This document shows positions 17,814-27,327 of a DNA stretch of 38,628 nucleotides, piece by piece. The stretch lies in NCBI GenBank assembly GCA_003818595.1, contig RPQV01000002.1, forward strand, positions 1-38,628, in the 5' to 3' direction. This DNA comes from Calditrichota bacterium. GTDB taxonomy: Bacteria; Zhuqueibacterota; Zhuqueibacteria; Residuimicrobiales; Krinioviventaceae. The position numbers and the translations under genes are program-made. Position 1 is the stretch's first letter. Each line of letters starts with the position of its first letter. The notes beneath the pieces are model-generated. The model was not told the DNA's origin, did no database searches, and was given only the letters and a program-made list of their open reading frames with translations.

Positions 17814-18704
17814 TCATACATCCGACGGCTTGGTTTTCCAACGCTTATGCATCCAAAACCAGTGATCCGGCCAACGTCGAATTTTATCCTCCAGCACTTT
17901 TACATGACGTTGAGTAAAAATCCGAATGTTCTCTTCATTTGAGTCCGACAGATCATCATAATCAATTTTTTCCAGGTAAACGTGATAATTGCCCTTGGGA
18001 ACCAGAATGCATACGCCGAAGATGACATGGGCTCGAGTTTTTAAAGCCAAAGCGGCAGGTCCTGGAGCTGTGGCAGAAGGCTGATTGAAAAAATTGACAA
18101 AAATCCCTTCACGATGAGCATCCTGATCGGGCAGTATCGCTACAAATTTATTCTGCTTTAAAGAACGTAAAAATTCCCTGACATTCATTCCCAATGCAAC
18201 TGCTTCGAGTCCCACTGACAATCGATATTTAGTGATCATCGTATCAACCAGATGATTACGTTGGTGTTTTGCAATCGCCACGATGGGATAGCCAAGCGCG
18301 CGAATGGCGCAAGCCATGATCTCCCAGTTGCCAAAATGACCGGTCGATAAGAGTGTACCGCGACCCGATTGATATGCCTCGTGCAACAGGTTTGAGTTAT
18401 ACATGATTACGCGCTTGTTGAGTTCTGTCTTTGAACGTATTGGTGTCCGCATAAATTCAAACAGATTCTGCCCGATATTCATATACGATTGTCTGGCGAT
18501 TCGTCGTTTTTCAGCTTTTGACTTTTCAGGGAATGCTTTGGTAAGGTTATCGAAAACAACTGACTTGCGTATGGGAACGAAATAGTAAGCAAAACACCCT
18601 AATAGACGGCCTAATCTGACAGTTGCTGCCGGACTAAGAGATTGTACTATATACGCGATCTGTAGGAGAAGCCGGTATTCAATGACATTTTTCTGTAATT
18701 TCAT
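17814..18704 (-). CDS. lpxL: lipid A late (Kdo-dependent) acyltransferase, LpxL/LpxM/HtrB family
   Basis: An N-terminal TM segment, then the LSTGHFGNWE (HX4-type) motif, ILPDQD, and FFNQPSATAPGPAALA. Confidence 0.75.
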   Translation of the reverse strand: MKLQKNVIEYRLLLQIAYIVQSLSPAATVRLGRLLGCFAYYFVPIRKSVVFDNLTKAFPEKSKAEKRRIARQSYMNIGQNLFEFMRTPIRSKTELNKRVIMYNSNLLHEAYQSGRGTLLSTGHFGNWEIMACAIRALGYPIVAIAKHQRNHLVDTMITKYRLSVGLEAVALGMNVREFLRSLKQNKFVAILPDQDAHREGIFVNFFNQPSATAPGPAALALKTRAHVIFGVCILVPKGNYHVYLEKIDYDDLSDSNEENIRIFTQRHVKVLEDKIRRWPDHWFWMHKRWKTKPSDV

Positions 18705-18745: not shown

Positions 18746-19696
18746 TTATGACTCCTCTTCATCCCCCCATTGCTCTGTATCTATAAGTGTAGATTCCTGT
18801 TCTGCTCTTTTGCCCTCCTCCTCCCATCGTCTGATAGTTTGTCGGTTTCTCAAAAATCGATAAAAAAAGGCAAGGACAAACAACCCCAAGATGATGATCC
18901 ACAGGTATTCTTCCAGCTCTGACAGCCAAAGCCATTTGTGTCGCTTGGTGATAACATTCGCCCATTCGACTTCGAACACTGCGTACGAACTCCCCGTGGC
19001 TTGGATGAAACAGTCATTGAGCGGAAGCCCGTCTTTCAGACCTTCCAAAATCTCCCGTACAGCTTCGGTATCATACGTATCCAACAAGTAGGAAACTGCA
19101 GAATAGGATTGCTGATAGGCAAGGTCGGCTTTCGCGCGATGATATTTTAAAATATCTTCAATTTGGTCGAGTGGGACAAGAGATCTGGTGGCAGCTGCCT
19201 TTGACAACGCTGTATCAGTTTTCCAACGTTTTTCTCGGGCATAATAAATCGCCAATCCTTCATCAAGCCAACGGGGAATGTGCACCTGGGAAACAAAATC
19301 GTGCATCACTAGATGGGTCAATTCATGGACCAAAACCTGTTCAAAGCTATTGTTTTTATCCCATCGCGGCGATTTTAAATACATCACCTGACGAGAGGGT
19401 ACTGCAAAAGCACCCGTCCAAGGCGGCAAAACGTCAGATACTATTGATAGAAAATCTTTTCGGGAAGGTGAAATATAAATATTCACTTCCTCGCACAATT
19501 TATATTGCAGATCGAATTCCAGTTCTTCCACTGCCGACCGAAGCACAGTCACTGCCTGACGAGCATAATTTGAATCGACAGCATCATAATAAACATGAAA
19601 CATTCCCTCATGCAGGCTCAAAGGAGCTGATTGACAGGGAACACCGCCAATCAACAGAAAGAAAAGAAACGCCATGTGCCCAATCTTGAGGGTCAT
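18746..19696 (-). CDS. membrane-anchored HExxH zinc metallopeptidase (peptidase-MA-like)
   Basis: Signal peptide MTLKIGHMAFLFFLLIGGVPCQSA. HELTHLVMHD, then WLDEGLAIYY about 20 aa later (gluzincin pattern). C-terminal TM helix LWIIILGLFVLAFFY, then a charged tail ending GDEEES. Confidence 0.6.
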   Translation of the reverse strand: MTLKIGHMAFLFFLLIGGVPCQSAPLSLHEGMFHVYYDAVDSNYARQAVTVLRSAVEELEFDLQYKLCEEVNIYISPSRKDFLSIVSDVLPPWTGAFAVPSRQVMYLKSPRWDKNNSFEQVLVHELTHLVMHDFVSQVHIPRWLDEGLAIYYAREKRWKTDTALSKAAATRSLVPLDQIEDILKYHRAKADLAYQQSYSAVSYLLDTYDTEAVREILEGLKDGLPLNDCFIQATGSSYAVFEVEWANVITKRHKWLWLSELEEYLWIIILGLFVLAFFYRFLRNRQTIRRWEEEGKRAEQESTLIDTEQWGDEEES

Positions 19697-19702
19697 AACC
19701 TG

Positions 19703-20107
19703 CTACGGTTTGAATTCAATGCCAAGGTATTCAGAAATCATACGATAGAGGCTAATGATCTGTTCCTTGAGCTTATTTTTCAAACAGTCGGGATTTTGGA
19801 AAAGGCAGTCATTGGCTTCGCATCGCTGTAGAGGTTCGGCACAACCAATTTCCATTTTGTACTGTTCGCTCGTTTTGAGCCGCTTAAAAATATCGGATTG
19901 TGAAAAATGATCCCCTTTAATTCGAATCCCCAGTTCAAGCGTTTTTTCCCATACAAATTGATATGAAGGAATTAATTCAAAAGCCTGCATGGCGTCAATG
20001 ATGGCCGACGGCGAAGAACCAGTCAACATATAGCGAAGCAGCTGAAGCTGAATTCCAGGTTTAAGCGCTACTGTAGTTTTTTGTCCTTGTTCCATAATCT
20101 CAGTCAA
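19703..20107 (-). CDS. hypothetical protein, 134 aa, with a C-x6-C-x4-C-x6-C cluster
   Basis: The ORF is tightly packed between neighbours (8-nt overlap upstream, 6-nt gap downstream). Four Cys lie in GCAEPLQRCEANDCLFQNPDC. I recognise no family. Confidence 0.5.
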   Translation of the reverse strand: MTEIMEQGQKTTVALKPGIQLQLLRYMLTGSSPSAIIDAMQAFELIPSYQFVWEKTLELGIRIKGDHFSQSDIFKRLKTSEQYKMEIGCAEPLQRCEANDCLFQNPDCLKNKLKEQIISLYRMISEYLGIEFKP

Positions 20108-20612
20108 AATGGTTAATCACGGTATCCAACATAATCCGCATACTGTTCTTTGCATTTTTTTTCTCTGCAGAATTCCAGAGCACGAATGAAAGTTTGGAGG
20201 AAAGTGAAAATCCATGCTCGAAAACGCCTGAATGAATACTGAGGAAGGAGTCCGCCACATCCCCGACGATGATGCCATGAGCATTCGTCCTCTGGGTCAG
20301 TTGATCGACCAGCAGTTGTGTTTCCTGAAAAGCCTGACTGTCATACCAATTAAAAACAATCATATAGCCCAACATTTTTCGCCCGACGATATCCCAGGCA
20401 AAATCCTGATATTGTTCCTTCTCACCAATTCCATAAAAAAACAATTGTAATTCATGCGTAATACGGCTACGGCCAAAAACCGTATTGTTATTTGTCAGAA
20501 TCACCTCATGACAAAGATGGGTGATCAACCTTTTCTGCAACGAAATGGAAGGACCAACCACGACGATCTCGCCAATCCGCTGTGCATCTTTTTGTATCGT
20601 CAAAAGTGCCAT
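20100..20612 (-). CDS. Ras/MglA-like small GTPase-fold protein with degenerate nucleotide-binding motifs (putative pseudo-GTPase)
   Basis: The strand and motif order resembles MglA: IVVVGPSISLQKR in place of Walker A, LQLFFYGIGEK in place of DxxG, GYMIVFNW, IIVGDVAD in place of NKxD, and VLWNSAEKKN (G5-like SAx). The alignment is by eye only. Confidence 0.45.
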   Translation of the reverse strand: MALLTIQKDAQRIGEIVVVGPSISLQKRLITHLCHEVILTNNNTVFGRSRITHELQLFFYGIGEKEQYQDFAWDIVGRKMLGYMIVFNWYDSQAFQETQLLVDQLTQRTNAHGIIVGDVADSFLSIHSGVFEHGFSLSSKLSFVLWNSAEKKNAKNSMRIMLDTVINHFD

Positions 20613-21827
20613 TTAGTTGCTGAATTTTTGTCGGACAAGTAATAATTCCGCCTTGGTGAGCGCAATTTTATTCATGGTCTTTTCATCATAATTAGATTTC
20701 AGGTTAAGATTCGTCTCATCATTCTCGTCTAAGGTTAAATTAAGAGACATATCCTGTTCATGGCGTCTTTTCCTGCGAAATAAAGAAAATATTTGCGAAT
20801 ACTTGTTTTTAGACGATCGAATGCCGCGCCTCAGCTGTTGCGGATTGACAGAAAAGGAGGATCGTTCATCTCGACGCCGTTCATGTTCAGTTTTGATTAA
20901 AAAACCTTTTTCAAGCAGATATTTAATCAATTTGAGCGCATAAAAATCTTCGAATTCACTGCGGTCGATCGCTTGAAGGATGGTGCAGGGTTCCTGAAAC
21001 TGCCTTAGCATCAGTTTCTCTTCATTGCCGATGCCCGGGGTTTGACTGCTTTCAACTCTAATGAGATGAGTATGTAATGCCGGAAGTTCCCCGGTTTCTT
21101 TGCGCCACTGCTCAATAACTTTAGCACCCTCGATAAATAATTTTTGTGTATTCGCTGCGACCGGCGGAAAATCATGGCCGATGTCCTTGATGACCACGGA
21201 AAAAGTACCATCAATCCAGGTCAACATATGGAGAAAAGCGCGTTCGATAGAATCATAATCGTCAACAATAGCATCGACGATTTTCCCGACGTGGATGTGA
21301 ACCTGTCCTTCTTTATCTCCTCGATTTAAATAGATAATACCAGATTTGGCGCCCAATTCCATGGTCTGTATGAGATCAATGAGATTCATTTCCTTCAAAC
21401 TGCCGGAAAAGCCTTGTTGCGCCGGTCTTGAAGAAAGATAAGGCACATTACTTTCCTGAAGCAGCAGATGAATTCTCGCGACTATTTCTTCCGGATAATA
21501 TGGTTTAATGACCAGATCATCTATCCCCATTTCCATGATGCTGATGCGTTTATCGAGTTCCGCCTCCTGAGTGACGACGATAATAGGTACCGGCAAATCG
21601 TTATATTGTTTTTTCATTTGCCGGATGAATAGGGAACCCCGATCAAAAGAAAGGTTAACATCAAACAAAATCAGGTCAGGGCGAGAAGCCAGGCATTGTT
21701 TATAGCCTGTTTGTATGTCGCCATGGACGGTAACGCTATAGTTACTATCTTGGAGCAATAGCTGCAATCGATCCAGTTCAGAAGAACTTTTATCTATGAT
21801 TAATATATGAGGACTCGGTTGCTCCAT
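20613..21827 (-). CDS. response-regulator receiver + PATAN/DUF4388 domain protein with a basic C-terminal tail
   Basis: The REC domain shows ILIIDKSSSE, DLILFDVNLS (Asp56), IIVVTQEAE, and DLVIKP. The DUF4388 block is LKEMNLIDLIQTMELGAKSGIIYLNRGDKEGQVHIHVGKIVDA. The start ATG shares one nt with the upstream stop (TAATG at 21825-21829). Confidence 0.7.
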   Translation of the reverse strand: MEQPSPHILIIDKSSSELDRLQLLLQDSNYSVTVHGDIQTGYKQCLASRPDLILFDVNLSFDRGSLFIRQMKKQYNDLPVPIIVVTQEAELDKRISIMEMGIDDLVIKPYYPEEIVARIHLLLQESNVPYLSSRPAQQGFSGSLKEMNLIDLIQTMELGAKSGIIYLNRGDKEGQVHIHVGKIVDAIVDDYDSIERAFLHMLTWIDGTFSVVIKDIGHDFPPVAANTQKLFIEGAKVIEQWRKETGELPALHTHLIRVESSQTPGIGNEEKLMLRQFQEPCTILQAIDRSEFEDFYALKLIKYLLEKGFLIKTEHERRRDERSSFSVNPQQLRRGIRSSKNKYSQIFSLFRRKRRHEQDMSLNLTLDENDETNLNLKSNYDEKTMNKIALTKAELLLVRQKFSN

Positions 21828-23611
21828 TATTTATTCTGACCTATTTTGGTGCTTTCATTTTCGACAACATCAAGTTCTGATATCTTCCCCTCCAGAACCG
21901 AAAACAGCAGCTGCCGCGCCCGCATGGCTTCCATGCTCGGAAAAAGCTGCAGATTCTCCTCATCTCTCAAATTCAAAAGTGCACGAATATTCTGCAATTC
22001 GAAATCATTTATCTTTTCAGCCGAGTATACTGCCTGGAATGGTGCTTGGGATTTTCGGCGCAAAACATTGAGCAGGTAGCGATAATAACTCCAATTCGAC
22101 ATTTTTTCATCAATGAGGAGAATATATCCCAGAACCAAAGTCTTGAAATAGTCAAGTATCGATGAAAATTCTTGATCGACTGTCACACTGATAAGGGTTA
22201 GATAATTGCCGTTGCGAAATTTAAGATGCCCATGAGGCAAATTGAATTGCGTGTTCTTAATTTGAACAATCGGCTGCATGATCAGACTCTCGATAAAGCG
22301 ACGCTGACGATCTTCGTTTGATCCCATGATTAATACGACGCCTAATTGCTTGGCCAATGAGGATTGTTGTGCTTCTGCCTGATATTGCGGAACCGAGGGG
22401 TGGTCAGAGAATATTGCTTGTTCCTGGGCTTCGACAGACGGAATGGCGGGTTGGTCGGTCTTTATATCTTGAGCCAGCAGAACGGTCTCCTCGACAGTTT
22501 TTAATTTGAATCCATTCTTCGGTCCAACCGTGGTCTTGACCGGGAGCATTTCAATATCATTCTCCGGTGTCTCAAAGGATTCCGCCTCGTCAAATTCATT
22601 TTCAGAAATAAACTCCGAGTCCTCTTGCAGCTTGAACTCCATAGGGCTCTGCTCGCGAGTAAAATCACGAAGAACGTGCAAAAAACCCAACTTGTAGAGT
22701 TTAACGATTCGTTTCAACGCAACGATTTCGTTTTCCCGACAGTCATCAATGATACGACCCAGGGTCCTTTCACCATCGAAAAGGATCAGAAACTCTTTCA
22801 ATTCTTGATTCATATCCTTCTGGGACAATATCTTTTTAAAGTTGGAAGTGGTAATAACCACTGCATCAAGGGAAGGAAGTTGTTTCAGCAATTCATTGCG
22901 TAAATCCATTCTTTTGGCTCCTTGCAGTAAAATCCCCATATTGCTGAGGATCATTTCGTCCTCCACATCGATATCGCCGAAAAACATTGTAAAGCGACCA
23001 CGATTCCAATTCATCATTTTGTAAACCGCTTCTTCGGCGCGCAGAGAGACCGTCATTGCGCCGAAAACGTTCCCGTGGTTGATAGCGATCTGTCCATTAT
23101 GTCCATTTTCATTATACAGAGCCAATAAACCGGTTTTTTTCTCGATTCCAAAAATTTCAATCAGATCAATAACCGACAGATCCTCCAGCCTTCCTGAAAA
23201 TTGATGGTTTTCATCTCTTCGCTGCAGCCGCTCAGATGAGGATCGTTGTACGACCATTTTTACACGACTGACAATTTCGCGGACGTGAACGGGTTTGACA
23301 ATAAAATCTTTGGCGCCCAGTTTAAGACTCTTAACTCTAGTCCAAACATCGCTTTTAGGAGATAAAAAGATAACCATTATTCCACTGCGGACAGAGCTTC
23401 GTTGAATCTCTTTGAGCAGATGGAATCCATCGATGCCCGGACAATTTAGTTCCGAGAGGACAACAATATAAGATGACCTGTAGATGCACCCCATCGCTTC
23501 TTCATCACTCGTGGCGGTGTCGACAAGGAATTTGGATTCTCTGAAATGGTCTTCCAGAATTTTCAAATTTTTATGATCGTGATCAACAATCAGTATATTA
23601 CGTTCGGACAT
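21827..23611 (-). CDS. atypical receiver (Glu at phospho-acceptor position) + PATAN/DUF4388 + acidic/Q-rich linker + degenerate GTPase-like C-terminal module
   Basis: The REC domain shows ILIVDHDH, IVVLSELNCPGIDG (E54 where Asp is expected), MVIFLSPKSD, and DFIVKP. The DUF4388 block is LEDLSVIDLIEIFGIEKKTGLLALYNENGHNGQIAINHGNVFGA. The C-terminal aa ~424-580 (VVLIMGSNEDRQRR, YLTLISVTVDQ, GYILLIDE) are paralogous by eye to the 170-aa protein. Confidence 0.65.
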   Translation of the reverse strand: MSERNILIVDHDHKNLKILEDHFRESKFLVDTATSDEEAMGCIYRSSYIVVLSELNCPGIDGFHLLKEIQRSSVRSGIMVIFLSPKSDVWTRVKSLKLGAKDFIVKPVHVREIVSRVKMVVQRSSSERLQRRDENHQFSGRLEDLSVIDLIEIFGIEKKTGLLALYNENGHNGQIAINHGNVFGAMTVSLRAEEAVYKMMNWNRGRFTMFFGDIDVEDEMILSNMGILLQGAKRMDLRNELLKQLPSLDAVVITTSNFKKILSQKDMNQELKEFLILFDGERTLGRIIDDCRENEIVALKRIVKLYKLGFLHVLRDFTREQSPMEFKLQEDSEFISENEFDEAESFETPENDIEMLPVKTTVGPKNGFKLKTVEETVLLAQDIKTDQPAIPSVEAQEQAIFSDHPSVPQYQAEAQQSSLAKQLGVVLIMGSNEDRQRRFIESLIMQPIVQIKNTQFNLPHGHLKFRNGNYLTLISVTVDQEFSSILDYFKTLVLGYILLIDEKMSNWSYYRYLLNVLRRKSQAPFQAVYSAEKINDFELQNIRALLNLRDEENLQLFPSMEAMRARQLLFSVLEGKISELDVVENESTKIGQNK

Positions 23612-23685
23612 CTTATAATAACTTCATATTTTTCCAATAGGTTAACAATGTATCTAATTTTATTTCACAAATCAACAATTTTGAC

Positions 23686-23715
23686 AAAAAAAAAGCCGGA
23701 CTCGCATCCGGCTTT
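23686..23715 (-). terminator. intrinsic terminator after the anti-sigma-like gene
   Basis: 9-bp stem aaagccgga / tccggcttt (23692-23700 and 23707-23715) with a 6-nt loop. On the minus strand a 9-nt U run follows (A-run 23686-23694). Confidence 0.75.
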
Positions 23716-23740: not shown

Positions 23741-24412
23741 TTATTTCAGGGGAACCATCATGTTCGTGTGACTATTTCCGGATGCCGAATCATTATGCTT
23801 TTCTTTAAAATAGACCACAATGTCACCCAACTCTTCTATGTCGCGTAAGGCAATTTTTGATGCACCTGAAGGACTAAAGTCTGCTGTTTTCGACTCTCCG
23901 GGAATTACAAGTTCCCAGCCTTCAAAGCAATCTGTTTCTGCCCTCCATAAATATAGTAATAATTCATTACATCTACTGTCTGTCATCGCACGGATGGCAA
24001 TTTGATCATTAGGCAGCGATTTAAAATCATATTCAGAAAGCGTTTTATGATCACCGCATATTTTGCCATTCGCCGTAAAAACGACTTTTGTCCGATAAGG
24101 AGTTTCGCTTTCGCTTTGATCCTTGGATTCTACCGGCTCGCACAGGACCAAACCATATTTAACATCGCTTGATCGAACTTTTTTTGCCAAGTCTAACACG
24201 CGATTGCTGACAGGACGATCAATTTCCTGACGAATGATCTGATACTGTTTTTTCAATTGTTGGTATTGTCGGCGGCACGGAAGGCATTCTTGCAGGTGAT
24301 GCTGTGCATTTATTCGAGCTTCTTCGCTTAAACTTTCGTCGATGCACAGTAATTCTGCTATGTTGTTCTTTTCACAACATTCAGGGGTCGATACGTTTTT
24401 TTTCATAATCAC
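23741..24412 (-). CDS. putative cytoplasmic zinc-binding anti-sigma factor (ZAS, zf-HC2) with an unknown C-terminal domain
   Basis: H-x3-C-x2-C motif HLQECLPC (H39, C43, C46) with upstream Cys at 12/13. I see no hydrophobic TM segment anywhere in the 223 aa. Confidence 0.5.
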   Translation of the reverse strand: MIMKKNVSTPECCEKNNIAELLCIDESLSEEARINAQHHLQECLPCRRQYQQLKKQYQIIRQEIDRPVSNRVLDLAKKVRSSDVKYGLVLCEPVESKDQSESETPYRTKVVFTANGKICGDHKTLSEYDFKSLPNDQIAIRAMTDSRCNELLLYLWRAETDCFEGWELVIPGESKTADFSPSGASKIALRDIEELGDIVVYFKEKHNDSASGNSHTNMMVPLK

Positions 24413-24509: not shown

Positions 24510-25616
24510 TTATAACAATTCTTTGAGCTGTCTCCTAAATTCTTTTTTGGCTACTTTGGCAAGGTACTCAAAAACAGACCGCTCATTCTGCCGATAATCT
24601 CTCTGGGTGAGATCAGGCAGATAATGTCTAAGATTCCGAAAATAAGACGAATTATCCTTTTTCTGAATGAGATCGTTTAAAACATCACGCAACGCCCGCG
24701 AATATATATCAGCCCGCTTCTCGTCAAGTTTTTTCGAGCGAAGGTACTGTGCACCAATTTTTCTCTCGACCTTATTCATCACCACATCGATATAACTTTC
24801 GATTTCCTTGGTTTCCAGCAAATCGAGCGGGGTCGGCACCAGTTCATCAGCAGACAATCGCTCCTTCACGGCGTTGAATTTTACTCGACGAATCAACTTG
24901 ACAATGGTTTCTATTGGCAAAAAGTTTTGATATTCTTCAAACTCGTGGACAGTCTTGAGGAGTTTACGGATAGAACTGGATACAGAATCAGAAGGGCTGT
25001 AAATGTCGATGAACCGCAGATGCAGAACATCCTCCGGAATGGGCGGGCGTTTACGACGTAGATAGGCCGCAATTGTTTCAAGGTTTAAATTTTCGTCCGC
25101 TTTGATTTCAAGGCCATTCTTATAGAAAACATATTCTTTCCCCAAATCACTGAATATTTCCAATTTTTCCGAAGTTCGAATGGCGACCTTGATATTACGG
25201 ACAATTTTTGCACCCTCTGGATCGCGCTCTCGAAAAATGCGCGACAACTCTTGTTTTGTTTTTCTGACAACCAACCGGCGGGTTAATATCATGACATCTG
25301 CGTCAGTGATATTGCCCATCTCTTCGAATTTTGGTTCATAATATCTTTTCAATTGCGGAAAATTGCCGCTGCCGTCCCCACTGAATAATTCAGCAATACA
25401 GTCAACCGCCAGATCCTGCAACTCCAAATCGGCATTTGCTTTTTCGCCGGCAATTCGTTTCCCGATTATTTCCTGATATTTAAGGTATCCTAAAGATATT
25501 TTCTGCGTCAAGTTTATGAATTCGACGAGCTGTGCCTGAGAATAATTCCCTGCACAGATATCGCGTACCAATTGACCTAAACAAATTTTTTCCATGAGTC
25601 CCATCTTCAAAAACAT
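24510..25616 (-). CDS. hypothetical protein, 368 aa; possible highly divergent sigma-70/ECF-like factor
   Basis: The N-terminal ADLELQDLAVDCIAELF ... ILTRRLVVRKTKQELSRIFRE resembles sigma region 2. The C-terminal ERSVFEYLAKVAKKEFRRQLKELL resembles the end of region 4. About 150 aa of extra sequence lies between them. The gene sits just upstream of the ZAS-like gene. The resemblance is weak and by eye only. Confidence 0.3.
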   Translation of the reverse strand: MFLKMGLMEKICLGQLVRDICAGNYSQAQLVEFINLTQKISLGYLKYQEIIGKRIAGEKANADLELQDLAVDCIAELFSGDGSGNFPQLKRYYEPKFEEMGNITDADVMILTRRLVVRKTKQELSRIFRERDPEGAKIVRNIKVAIRTSEKLEIFSDLGKEYVFYKNGLEIKADENLNLETIAAYLRRKRPPIPEDVLHLRFIDIYSPSDSVSSSIRKLLKTVHEFEEYQNFLPIETIVKLIRRVKFNAVKERLSADELVPTPLDLLETKEIESYIDVVMNKVERKIGAQYLRSKKLDEKRADIYSRALRDVLNDLIQKKDNSSYFRNLRHYLPDLTQRDYRQNERSVFEYLAKVAKKEFRRQLKELL

Positions 25617-25741: not shown

Positions 25742-25757
25742 AGCAAATGTTATACCA
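25742..25757 (-). promoter_or_regulatory. candidate sigma-54 (-24/-12) promoter
   Basis: The minus strand reads TGGTATAACATTTGCT, against the consensus TGGCAC-N5-TTGCW. The GG and GC dinucleotides have exactly canonical spacing. It lies about 125 nt upstream of the 368-aa ORF start and directly downstream of an NtrC-type activator gene. Confidence 0.5.
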
Positions 25758-25872: not shown

Positions 25873-25905
25873 AAAAAAGGGCGAACTTAAAGTTCGCCCT
25901 TAAAA
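25873..25905 (-). terminator. intrinsic terminator after the NtrC-family gene
   Basis: Perfect 12-bp palindromic stem aagggcgaactt / aagttcgccctt (25877-25888 and 25890-25901). On the minus strand it is followed by UUUUUU. It lies 25 nt past the stop at 25927. Confidence 0.8.
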
Positions 25906-25926: not shown

Positions 25927-27327
25927 TCAGCTGCTTTTGACCATCGGAAGCCCATATTTCTTTGCCTTACGATAGATGGTCGCCCTACCGATGCCTAACT
26001 GTTTTGCGGTTTTGGAGATATTTCCTTCACATTCCAATAAAGCCTGACGCAACGCTTGTTCTTCCAATTTTTCAATCCAACTGGCCAGTGTATTGTCGGC
26101 TTCATAAATTCTTTTCTCCCCCAATGCCCGAACAGCAGGCGGAAGATCTTTGGCAGATATTTCTATACCGGTCGCCAATACGACAGCTCGTTCCATCGCA
26201 TTCTCCAGCTCACGCACATTTCCCGGCCAATTATAGGCCATCATCAGCTCGAGAGCATCTGAAGAAATACTGTCAATTTCTTTACTCTCTTGTTCATTGT
26301 ACTTGTTGAGAAAATGCGCAGCCAAGAGGGGAATATCATCTTTGCGTTCCCTTAATGAAGGCAGTTTGATGGGAAACACCGAAATCCGATAATACAGATC
26401 TTCGCGGAAACTACCATTCTTCATCTCTTCTTCGAGGTCTTTATTGGTCGCTGAAATAACGCGTACATTAACCTTAATTAATTCATTGCCGCCGACGCGT
26501 TCGAATTCACGCTCCTGAAGAATGCGCAGGATCTTTGATTGGGTCGCCGGCGTCATGAGTCCAATCTCGTCCAGGAAAATAGTGCCGCCATCAGCCTGCT
26601 CAAATTTGCCGATTCGCCGACCTGAAGCACCAGTAAACGAGCCCTTCTCGTGCCCGAATAATTCACTTTCCAATAATGACTCTGGTAATGCAGAACAGTT
26701 GACTGCAACAAAGGGTTTGTTGACACGGGCTTTGGAATGAAAATGGATCGCGCGCGCGATCAGCTCTTTGCCCGTTCCGCTTTCCCCTTGAATCAATACA
26801 GTCACGTTGCTGTTGACAACTTTTTCAACCGATTTAAAAACATCCTGCATCATACCGCTCTGCCCGACAATGTTTTTAAAGGTGTATTTGTTTTTCAATT
26901 CAGATCGCAGTTCGGTCACTTCTTTTTGCAGCGAACTGTTAATCAGCGCATTCTGCACAGTGACGAGGAGACGATCACGAGCAAACGGCTTGGTCAGAAA
27001 ATCGTAAGCGCCCAGCTTCATGGAATTCACTGCTCGTTCAATCGTCCCATGAGCCGTCATCATCACCACGGGAATTCGTCCGTCTTCTTCTTTGATTCGT
27101 TTTAATGTCTCAATGCCGTCGATGCCCGGCATCTGGATGTCGATCAGAACCAAGTCAGGCAGTTCTTCTTTAATCAATTTTAAACACGCTTCTCCGCTGA
27201 GAGCAGTTTTTATCTCATATTTTCTCTCTTTACGAAGACTGGCCTCGATCATCTTGCATATGTTTTTATCATCATCGACGATGAGAATTTGCGGTCTGTT
27301 TTTTTCTTCCACTTTAAATGTCTCCAT
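25927..27327 (-). CDS. sigma-54-dependent response regulator (NtrC/AtoC family enhancer-binding protein)
   Basis: Canonical REC domain (ILIVDDDKN, DLVLIDIQMPGIDG, VVMMTAHGT, DFLTKP). AAA+ domain with Walker A GESGTGKE, GSFTGA (GAFTGA variant), and FLDEIG. C-terminal Fis-type HTH NISKTAKQLGIGRATIYRKAKKYGL. Confidence 0.9.
   Translation of the reverse strand: METFKVEEKNRPQILIVDDDKNICKMIEASLRKERKYEIKTALSGEACLKLIKEELPDLVLIDIQMPGIDGIETLKRIKEEDGRIPVVMMTAHGTIERAVNSMKLGAYDFLTKPFARDRLLVTVQNALINSSLQKEVTELRSELKNKYTFKNIVGQSGMMQDVFKSVEKVVNSNVTVLIQGESGTGKELIARAIHFHSKARVNKPFVAVNCSALPESLLESELFGHEKGSFTGASGRRIGKFEQADGGTIFLDEIGLMTPATQSKILRILQEREFERVGGNELIKVNVRVISATNKDLEEEMKNGSFREDLYYRISVFPIKLPSLRERKDDIPLLAAHFLNKYNEQESKEIDSISSDALELMMAYNWPGNVRELENAMERAVVLATGIEISAKDLPPAVRALGEKRIYEADNTLASWIEKLEEQALRQALLECEGNISKTAKQLGIGRATIYRKAKKYGLPMVKSS

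Follow-up and report, generated by a model that had tools for sequence, protein, structure and literature searches.

The classic example of a nucleotide switch is the small Ras-like GTPase, and bacterial MglA is the model for how such a switch establishes cell polarity. What becomes of such a switch when the motifs that hold the nucleotide are gone? The question is raised by a cassette of five minus-strand genes in a 38,628-nt stretch of DNA from a Calditrichota bacterium (assembly GCA_003818595.1, contig RPQV01000002.1), hereafter called the window. The first two genes encode paralogues that join a receiver domain (REC) to a PATAN (DUF4388) domain; the longer of these (594 amino acids, aa) carries an extra C-terminal module, and the third gene encodes a free-standing protein of 170 aa. 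A small Cys-rich protein and a peptidase complete the set. A preliminary description of the region had proposed, by eye, that the C-terminal module and the 170-aa protein are both Ras/MglA-like folds that have lost Walker A and NKxD. Our analysis supports a G-domain fold and an MglA-type ancestry for both modules, and the loss of the motifs extends throughout their family.

Structure and profile searches returned G-domain folds for the two modules. The AlphaFold2 (AF2) model of the 170-aa protein (predicted local distance difference test, pLDDT, 71; predicted template-modelling score, pTM, 0.73) shows a β-α-β pattern, and all 50 of its top Foldseek matches in the PDB are Ras, Rab or Rheb, with template-modelling (TM) scores of 0.6–0.7. 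For the fused C-terminal module (pLDDT 87, pTM 0.82), the top matches are the G domains of Rab, Arf, FeoB, YsxC and Gα (E = 2e-6). PDB searches with single sequences of both modules gave chance-level matches only, among them a weak match to Sec4 in the correct register.

A word-indexed search with the free-standing protein returned 17 clusters, all of ~170 aa and one of them named from candidate division KSB1, and a hidden Markov model (HMM) search of 1.84 billion representatives (50% clustering) found only 81 proteins at E ≤ 1e-3. The pattern GxxxxGK[ST] is absent from the strong matches of the HMM search; several of the weakest (E ~1e-6 to 6e-4) carry it. These weakest relatives are recognised by the Pfam models ATP_bind_1, Ras and Arf, and they have GxxxxGKT, a Thr pair ahead of DFG, GTPGQ and NKxD. 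When 48 P-loop-less members of the free family were compared with eight genuine GTPases by hhalign, the match had a probability of 99.8% (E = 1.4e-27) over 162 columns. The corresponding values for 24 fused C-terminal segments were 97.8% (E = 1e-12, 163 columns) against the genuine GTPases and 93.7% (E = 1.9e-7) against the free family. GTPGQ in G3, together with Thr at the G2 arginine position, is common to MglA Groups 2–5 (PMC4316618). These data support, by independent lines of sequence and structure evidence, a G-domain fold for both modules and an MglA-type ancestry of the Group 2–5 kind, with GTPGQ in G3.

Just one of the 48 free members gives a Ras match in Pfam, and that one is below threshold. 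One free pseudoGTPase (P0123) bears the automated JGI name 'signal recognition particle receptor subunit beta', which echoes its faint likeness to GTPases and is misleading for a protein without a P-loop. Two remote matches of the HMM search (P0165 and P0169) are genuine MglA-like G domains fused to TIR/HEAT and TIR/nSTAND1, respectively. Their architectures look like those of conflict systems and unrelated to the cassette.

In the register taken from the module–GTPase profile alignments, GxxxxGKT of G1 is replaced by GPSISLQKR in the 170-aa protein (aa 20–28, 20529–20555) and by GSNEDRQRR in the fused module (aa 430–438, 22298–22324), at the coordinates originally reported. Among the 48 free members, the Walker Gly column holds Gly in 4, the Lys column holds Lys in 14, and the Ser/Thr column holds Ser or Thr in 5; GPSxxLQKR stands at the P-loop position in all 17 free-form clusters of the word-indexed search. 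At G2, the stretch with the Thr pair is deleted relative to the genuine relatives, and the downstream FGR is kept. GTPGQ of G3 has become YGIGEK in the 170-aa protein and Y-G-[ILV]-x-x-x in the family. NKxD of G4 reads GDVAD in the 170-aa protein, with family columns of A/G, D/N, V and two variable positions, and the fused module has no G4 equivalent. No match to GxxxxGK[ST] was found in the 48 free members or in >80 fused-form relatives. The loss of Walker A and NKxD noted in the window is hence family-wide, and no orthologue has an intact P-loop, the sole relic being GTANSGKG in a deep-branching locus (L093, in our numbering of related loci).

The proteins that carry these changes are well preserved. 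Free-form open reading frames (ORFs) are intact among the 81 representatives, with lengths of 159–173 aa for aligned full-length members. E15 and Y60 are invariant, and G47 (within FGR), G61, G82 and W89 nearly so; the conserved residues, which include the AWD segment, cluster at the former β1, switch I and switch II, around the old nucleotide site. The fused module occurs in nearly all full-length long paralogues (551–903 aa) despite a hypervariable linker. Because G1, the G2 Thr region, the G3 Gly and Gln and the G4 NKxD are lost, and this state is kept clade-wide, we regard the modules as pseudoGTPases; and because ORFs are intact and cores conserved in 81 free representatives and >80 fused clusters, the comparison shows that they are maintained rather than recently decayed copies. 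They should not be classed as GTPases, since the defining tests at G1–G4 fail. In a classification of pseudoGTPases they would belong to class i, having the fold without the G motifs, with absence of nucleotide binding as a prediction.

The two large proteins fit the initial reading of them as REC plus DUF4388/PATAN paralogues with a helical segment in common. Both contain PF00072 (E = 2.5e-19 and 1.7e-17) followed by PF14332 (E = 4.5e-13 and 6.1e-15; 49.8 and 55.8 bits, cut-off 25), and BLASTP aligns aa 50–311 of the long paralogue with aa 52–310 of the short one (E = 2e-22), spanning REC, PATAN and the helical segment. Within this segment of the long paralogue, F278, D279, G280, L305, L308 and F310 are invariant in 39 orthologues. 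Homologues of the long paralogue fall into 86 clusters at E ≤ 1e-20, and nearly all full-length ones share its architecture. Comparison of the PATAN and helical region with solved structures gave nothing meaningful. Pfam and NCBIfam gave no match to the 170-aa protein, to the small protein or to the final ~180 aa of the long paralogue.

Both receivers are atypical in their predicted phosphorylation sites. The long paralogue has Glu54 at the phospho-acceptor position and His11 at the equivalent of CheY D13. Across the 39 orthologues, the acceptor is Glu in 34, Asp in 4 and Ala in 1, and the D13 equivalent is acidic in 2, with the S/T and K positions kept. For the short paralogue, nine orthologues have Asp (5, window included) or Glu (4) as acceptor and an invariant Lys; the D13 equivalent is acidic in none of them. 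Neither paralogue shows the full acidic pocket together with an acceptor Asp. Alignment of the same nine orthologues revealed a conserved motif at the C-terminus of the short paralogue, LTKAELLL[IV]RQK[LF]. This motif is degenerate in L009, the sole locus without a free pseudoGTPase, a single negative case (n = 1) that gives only a hint.

How are these genes arranged? The five minus-strand genes in the ORF list reproduce the earlier gene models exactly and are closely packed. The features of the cassette and its immediate surroundings, in window coordinates, are as follows.

21827-23611, minus strand: long paralogue, 594 aa (ORF list), with atypical REC, PATAN, helical segment, acidic variable linker and putative C-terminal MglA-derived pseudoGTPase module
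23258..23596, minus strand: receiver domain of the long paralogue, aa 6-118 (Pfam PF00072)
22901..23197, minus strand: PATAN/DUF4388 (PatA_N) domain of the long paralogue, aa 139-237 (PF14332, E = 4.5e-13)
22673..22804, minus strand: helical segment ILFDGERTLGRIIDD...LKRIVKLYKLGFL of the long paralogue, ~aa 270-313 (within the BLASTP paralogue alignment; also in the short paralogue)
21869..22351, minus strand: putative C-terminal pseudoGTPase module of the long paralogue, ~aa 421-581 (AF2, Foldseek, hhalign)
20613-21827, minus strand: short paralogue, 404 aa (ORF list), with REC (aa 8-119), PATAN (aa 141-242), helical segment and basic tail with conserved end motif
20625..20663, minus strand: tail motif LTKAELLLVRQKF of the short paralogue (alignment of 9 orthologues)
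20100-20612, minus strand: putative free-standing pseudoGTPase, 170 aa (ORF list)
19703..20095 from ATG (130 aa) or 19703-20107 from TTG (134 aa), minus strand: small orphan protein (ORF list and start-site reading)
18746-19696, minus strand: MA-clan metallopeptidase, 316 aa (ORF list, Pfam PF13485)
17814..18704, minus strand: LpxL-type lipid A acyltransferase (PF03279, E = 9e-55), 41 nt 3' of the peptidase gene
23692..23715, minus strand: intrinsic-terminator hairpin, 10-bp stem plus T9, between the 223-aa and 594-aa genes (terminator scan)

Read directly, the junction of the 594-aa and 404-aa genes is AAA-TAA overlapping the ATG as TAATG (21825–21829), and that of the 404-aa and 170-aa genes is AAC-TAA-ATG with no spacer (TAAATG at 20610–20615). 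Six nucleotides separate the small gene from the peptidase gene. All this agrees with the preliminary description, which also reported an 8-nt overlap of the 170-aa and small genes at 20100–20107. The overlap exists if the small gene starts at TTG, and disappears if it starts at the ATG at 20095, which lies 4 nt past the TGA. Because orthologous gene models (125–144 aa) begin just past the preceding stop, this ATG, yielding 130 aa, is the more likely start. Genes are closely spaced or overlap at all junctions in every orthologous locus examined, so the tight packing is not due to chance. The region forms one operon with translational coupling between its genes, and a conserved terminator precedes it.

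The set is also conserved as a neighbourhood in other genomes. All five members (long paralogue, short paralogue, free module, small protein and Peptidase_MA_2) are present in the window and its close KSB1-type relatives, and again in loci where the free module is only 26–31% identical (L089, L090, L091/L092, L094, L095 and L096). The order lpxK...cassette...lpxL is kept where LpxK and LpxL are only 42–60% identical. Further out, L093 (7184–10905, ENA ERZ1742237 NODE_8), whose free module (P0158) is ~21% identical to the 170-aa protein in the alignment, has the four-gene core between SpoIID and Tig/ClpP/ClpX/Lon, with no peptidase, lipopolysaccharide (LPS) genes or σ54 activator. A protein of this locus is also recorded under the name of bacterium BMS3Abin05. 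The long paralogue of L093 combines a canonical receiver (DD, D, T, K) with the relic P-loop, and may stand midway in evolution from a functional REC-PATAN-MglA protein to the frozen state of the window. L007 has the long, short and free-module genes followed by a pyridoxal phosphate (PLP) enzyme.

In L009 (1–4945, metagenome-assembled genome CAZMUU010000083), both REC-PATAN genes, the peptidase and LpxL are present, and a 53-nt gap takes the place of the free-module and small genes, both of which are missing. This locus was the sole true relative among 80 in a scan of contigs for the long paralogue, the receiver-motif pattern G[AV]KD[YF]I[VI]KP having also drawn in 79 unrelated regulators. 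Its label, 'uncultured Cytophagia', looks doubtful beside the other cassette sources, all of which, where named, are KSB1, Calditrichaeota or BMS3Abin05-type uncultured bacteria. The core survives in another setting, two members were lost together, one module is fused and translation is coupled; in combination, these features argue that the cassette genes act together.

The small protein has an invariant core, FVWEKTLExGIRxKGxxFS, and a four-Cys cluster, C-x6-C-x4-C-x6-C. Its early characterisation as Cys-rich holds for the window and for 10 of 12 orthologues, and is not universal: those of L091 (9509–9898) and L094 (10532–10918) lack the cluster and keep the FVWEKTLE...KG..F core. Since two lineages do without it, the cluster is probably a dispensable structural metal site. 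We considered the protein as an analogue of Roadblock/MglB or DUF742/CvnC, and rejected this, as 12 members gave no recurring Pfam match (E ≤ 1) and no PDB relative was found. The peptidase matches Peptidase_MA_2 (PF13485, E = 1e-22; 81.4 bits against a cut-off of 32.4), and its translation reads HELTH...EGLA, i.e. HExxH with a downstream Glu ligand. A signal-like segment at the N-terminus and a transmembrane helix at the C-terminus, with a short acidic tail, predict an extracytoplasmic, membrane-anchored MA-clan metallopeptidase. In 11 loci its gene comes after the small gene; L093 lacks it.

What surrounds the cassette? A Pfam scan of essentially all window ORFs shows the window to be an envelope-polysaccharide super-locus, in the order LpxB, DUF374, LpxK, a σ54 activator with a receiver, a 368-aa orphan, a 223-aa HxxxCxxC protein, the cassette and the LpxL-type gene; beyond these come a pyruvyl transferase, glycosyltransferases of families GT2, GT4 and GT9, an MsbA-like ATP-binding cassette (ABC) transporter, a Wza-like exporter and sugar-nucleotide enzymes. 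The usual setting of the cassette is the same, between lpxK and the lpxL-type gene and 3' of the σ54 activator, and the position of the LpxL-type gene is conserved in L004, L006, L009, L089, L091, L094 and L095. The scan found no Roadblock/MglB, histidine kinase, pilus or motility gene in the window, as had been noted at the outset, and no Roadblock/MglB, pilus, gliding or chemosensory gene appears among the called genes up to 20 kb around related loci.

The coding strand has two strong hairpin terminators, at 25901–25877 (past the σ54 activator) and 23715–23692 (past the 223-aa gene). Because the latter is nearly identical and in the same place in L003, L004 and L006, the 594-aa gene is predicted to head its own transcription unit. 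No terminator-like site was found between cassette genes or between the peptidase and the LpxL-type gene, and these last two are probably on the cassette transcript. In L003 (4951–5040), only ~37 nt separate the terminator T-run from the ATG of the long paralogue, too short a distance for a separate promoter and leader; expression of the cassette may come from read-through or from a promoter that overlaps the hairpin. A σ54 promoter directly 5' of the 594-aa gene was rejected, the only candidate (23671–23686) having three mismatches and no GG.

A σ54-type –24/–12 element, TGGTAT-N5-TTGCT, is located at 25742–25757 on the minus strand, ~140 nt 5' of the 368-aa gene, and occupies the same place in four related loci, L003, L004, L006 and L091 (TGGTAC...TTGCC in L091). 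About 100 nt further 5', the repeat GATACACTGT is also conserved, and in L091 it forms a perfect palindrome. This conserved element and repeat 5' of the 368-aa gene suggest that the adjacent σ54 activator drives the 368-aa/223-aa pair. Both the activator (25927–27327) and the 368-aa orphan (24510–25616) evolve unusually slowly, being 82–93% and 63–82% identical, respectively, between loci whose LpxK and LpxL are only 42–60% identical. The 223-aa protein (23741–24412) has an HxxxCxxC motif (HHLQECLPC), as in zinc-binding anti-sigma factors, and weak NCBIfam anti-sigma matches; its L094 orthologue has a weak zf-HC2 match. No recognisable sigma-factor partner for it was found. The 368-aa protein was considered for this role and rejected, given no Pfam or NCBIfam match and no PDB relative (the latter with a 5-sequence profile). 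Elsewhere in the window, between LPS genes and an M24 peptidase gene, is a 125-aa member of the '23S rRNA-intervening sequence protein' family (PF05635, 31525–31902).

What might such a cassette do? We lean modestly towards a reading in which a PATAN and MglA switch has been turned into a nucleotide-independent scaffold partnered with the REC-PATAN proteins, with an output at the cell envelope. An ancestral PATAN plus MglA switch module would have become a protein-interaction scaffold that works without nucleotide, its frozen switch face (E15, FGR47-48, Y60-G61, AWD and W89) serving as a constitutive binding surface. The partner of this face would be the PATAN-helical part or the tail motif of a REC-PATAN protein; a Rosetta-stone argument suggests a physical complex, since the long paralogue is fused to such a module and the gene of the short one adjoins, and is coupled to, that of the free module. 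Regulation would have shifted from GTP/GDP to the receivers, of which that of the long paralogue (Glu acceptor, no second acidic residue) would be frozen too, and that of the short paralogue (Asp, Thr and Lys kept) may still answer a kinase encoded elsewhere. The output would be control or placement of the biogenesis or remodelling of the cell envelope (LPS/outer membrane), not motility. An envelope output seems the likeliest because the cassette usually has lpxK on one side and an lpxL-type gene on the other, and probably shares its transcript with the extracytoplasmic peptidase; we infer this step from the peptidase and the lpxK–lpxL setting, and it is the weakest of the series.

Several findings weigh against this reading, and rival accounts build on some of them. 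The AF2 model of the 170-aa protein is of moderate confidence (pLDDT 71), and the remaining four models have pLDDT values of 47–61. The contact between PATAN proteins and pseudoGTPases is one we infer from fusion and adjacency. At the former P-loop, the 18 closest free-form (KSB1-type) sequences all keep G20, S22 and K27, and the fused module of L093 keeps GxxxxGK in GTANSGKG, so some non-canonical phosphate or nucleotide contact could persist. On this basis the system might still be a nucleotide-gated, MglA-like switch whose modules hold a nucleotide in a non-canonical pocket, binding without hydrolysis or taking ATP or a phosphate ligand. The Lys in the Walker Lys column of 14 of the 48 free members, and the grouping of conserved residues around the old nucleotide site, would suit it. 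Yet the Walker Gly, Lys and Ser/Thr columns are unconserved in the wider family, the G2 Thr region is deleted, the G3 Gly and Gln are replaced, NKxD is lost and just one in 48 members reaches even a sub-threshold Ras match; we think continued nucleotide binding unlikely. Far less probable still is that the GTPase-like parts are decaying, functionless remnants that hitchhike with the REC-PATAN genes. Loss of all catalytic motifs and the dispensability of the free and small genes in L009 speak for that idea, but intact ORFs of conserved length (159–173 aa) in 81 representatives, the invariant E15 and Y60 and nearly invariant G47, G61, G82 and W89, and a fused module that occurs in nearly all full-length long paralogues and folds with high confidence make it very hard to credit.

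Other alternatives concern the output. The experimentally known PATAN partner is the pilus ATPase PilB, not an envelope enzyme: in cyanobacterial regulators, PATAN serves as the output domain and binds PilB1 and PilC (bioRxiv 10.1101/2021.06.11.447907). The cassette might be a module for cell polarity or type IV pilus motility that acts in trans, with PATAN binding the PilB/PilC motor and the position in an LPS locus incidental. MglA ancestry of the modules would fit, as would the presence of PATAN proteins in the SgmX proximity set of Myxococcus xanthus, where the pseudo-receiver FrzS belongs to the same network, and the occurrence of the core outside any LPS context in L093 and L007. We nevertheless judge this improbable, given the lack of pilus, gliding, MglB/Roadblock and chemosensory genes in the window or in stretches of up to 20 kb around relatives, a REC-PATAN order unlike the PATAN-REC order of PatA-type regulators, and a co-transcribed extracytoplasmic peptidase conserved in 11 loci. 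A more serious concern is that the LPS context may to a large extent be inherited synteny, since every locus belongs to a single group of related uncultured lineages. The cassette would then be a real functional unit, its links to lipid A/LPS and σ54 would reflect only vertical descent, and its target would lie elsewhere, for example in development, division or stress signalling. A conserved terminator parts the cassette from the upstream σ54-controlled pair, and the cores of L093 and L007 sit beside SpoIID and Tig/ClpXP/Lon and beside a PLP enzyme, respectively. Against this, the lpxK–cassette–lpxL order persists at 42–60% LpxK/LpxL identity and 26–31% free-module identity, and no terminator intervenes between the peptidase and the LpxL-type gene. 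We regard inherited synteny as possible, if on the doubtful side.

The preferred reading of a nucleotide-independent scaffold can be extended to the whole locus, in a form that is speculative and rather unlikely to be right in full. An MglA-PATAN polarity switch would have been rebuilt nucleotide-free, the two pseudoGTPases, two REC-PATAN proteins and a zinc-knuckle protein together positioning or gating outer-membrane/LPS assembly through the membrane-anchored periplasmic peptidase, downstream of the σ54 activator and its uncharacterised pair. If true, the locus would hold the first pseudoGTPase signalling system of bacteria, and the phospho-receiver and G domain of the long paralogue would have been frozen together in evolution, with L093 as the intermediate.

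To our knowledge, pseudoGTPases have been characterised almost entirely in eukaryotes. The cassette offers a clean, conserved family (>80 fused clusters and 81 free representatives) that no Pfam or NCBIfam model sees, a Rosetta-stone fusion that names the PATAN regulator as the likely partner of the pseudoGTPase, and in L093 an apparent evolutionary intermediate with a canonical receiver and most of a P-loop. It bears on two questions, namely what PATAN domains bind and how a G-domain scaffold works without nucleotide. That the cassette keeps turning up among lipid A/LPS genes, together with an extracytoplasmic peptidase, may be a sign that polarity-type signalling and the building of the envelope are connected in these little-studied phyla. 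Although no host is in culture and function is read from context, the proteins are small and soluble, and heterologous expression is feasible.

Is the combination new? The preliminary description did not recognise it as a described system. No description of a P-loop-less MglA derivative or of a PATAN-pseudoGTPase fusion was found in the open-access full-text literature, so to that extent the view stands; the linkage of PATAN with MglA/MglB is already published, as the passages of PMC4316618 on gene neighbourhoods make clear. What is new is the P-loop-less MglA derivative and its fusion. According to those passages (citing Makarova 2006), MglA Group 1 and 5 genes and MglB genes are sometimes found near PATAN genes.

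Among known systems, an anti-phage defence system was rejected, there being no PADLOC match and only a marginal receiver-domain hit (E = 0.001). The conservon (CvnA kinase, CvnB Roadblock, CvnC DUF742 and CvnD GTPase) is likewise a four-gene operon with an MglA-family G domain and a small protein. The cassette differs in having a degenerate G domain, whereas that of CvnD9 is active (PMC4316618), and its identity as a conservon was rejected since kinase, Roadblock and DUF742 are all missing. PatA-type regulators (PixE, PixG, LsiR and PatA) also combine PF14332 with a receiver, and in them PATAN is an output and interaction domain (bioRxiv 10.1101/2021.06.11.447907). Their order is PATAN-REC, whereas the cassette proteins are REC-PATAN followed by the helical segment and a pseudoGTPase or tail motif; the cassette receivers lack the second acidic residue, the long one having a Glu acceptor, and there is no chemosensory or pilus context.

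The M. xanthus network of MglA, MglB, RomR, FrzS and SgmX likewise brings together an MglA-type G domain, receivers or pseudo-receivers and PATAN proteins, FrzS being a pseudo-receiver without phosphorylation residues. There, MglA is a true GTP switch and MglB its GTPase-activating protein, whereas the G domains of the cassette appear dead, no MglB occurs in the window and the setting is LPS biosynthesis. The closest resemblance in descent is to MglA Groups 2–5, including the CvnD-like 'ATP/GTP-binding proteins' (PMC4316618): the G-domain fold is the same, with profile homology over ~160 residues, a common order of secondary structure and the landmarks FGR, LYG, (A)WD and LGY. The window modules differ from this family in lacking G1–G4, in having no MglB/Roadblock nearby (most MglA genes are coupled to such a partner), in the fusion of one copy to REC-PATAN, and in being recognised by no Pfam or NCBIfam model. 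As for mode of action, class i pseudoGTPases are, in the account of the Stiegler & Boggon 2020 classification given in PMC12490416, nucleotide-free interaction modules that often belong to multidomain proteins, with the N-terminal domain of AAGAB, CENP-M and pG1/pG2 of p190RhoGAP as examples. These are eukaryotic and of unrelated descent, whereas the modules described here have a bacterial MglA ancestor, likely PATAN partners and a nucleotide-free state that is predicted. They share with the window modules a G-domain fold without G motifs, and serve as our working model for them.

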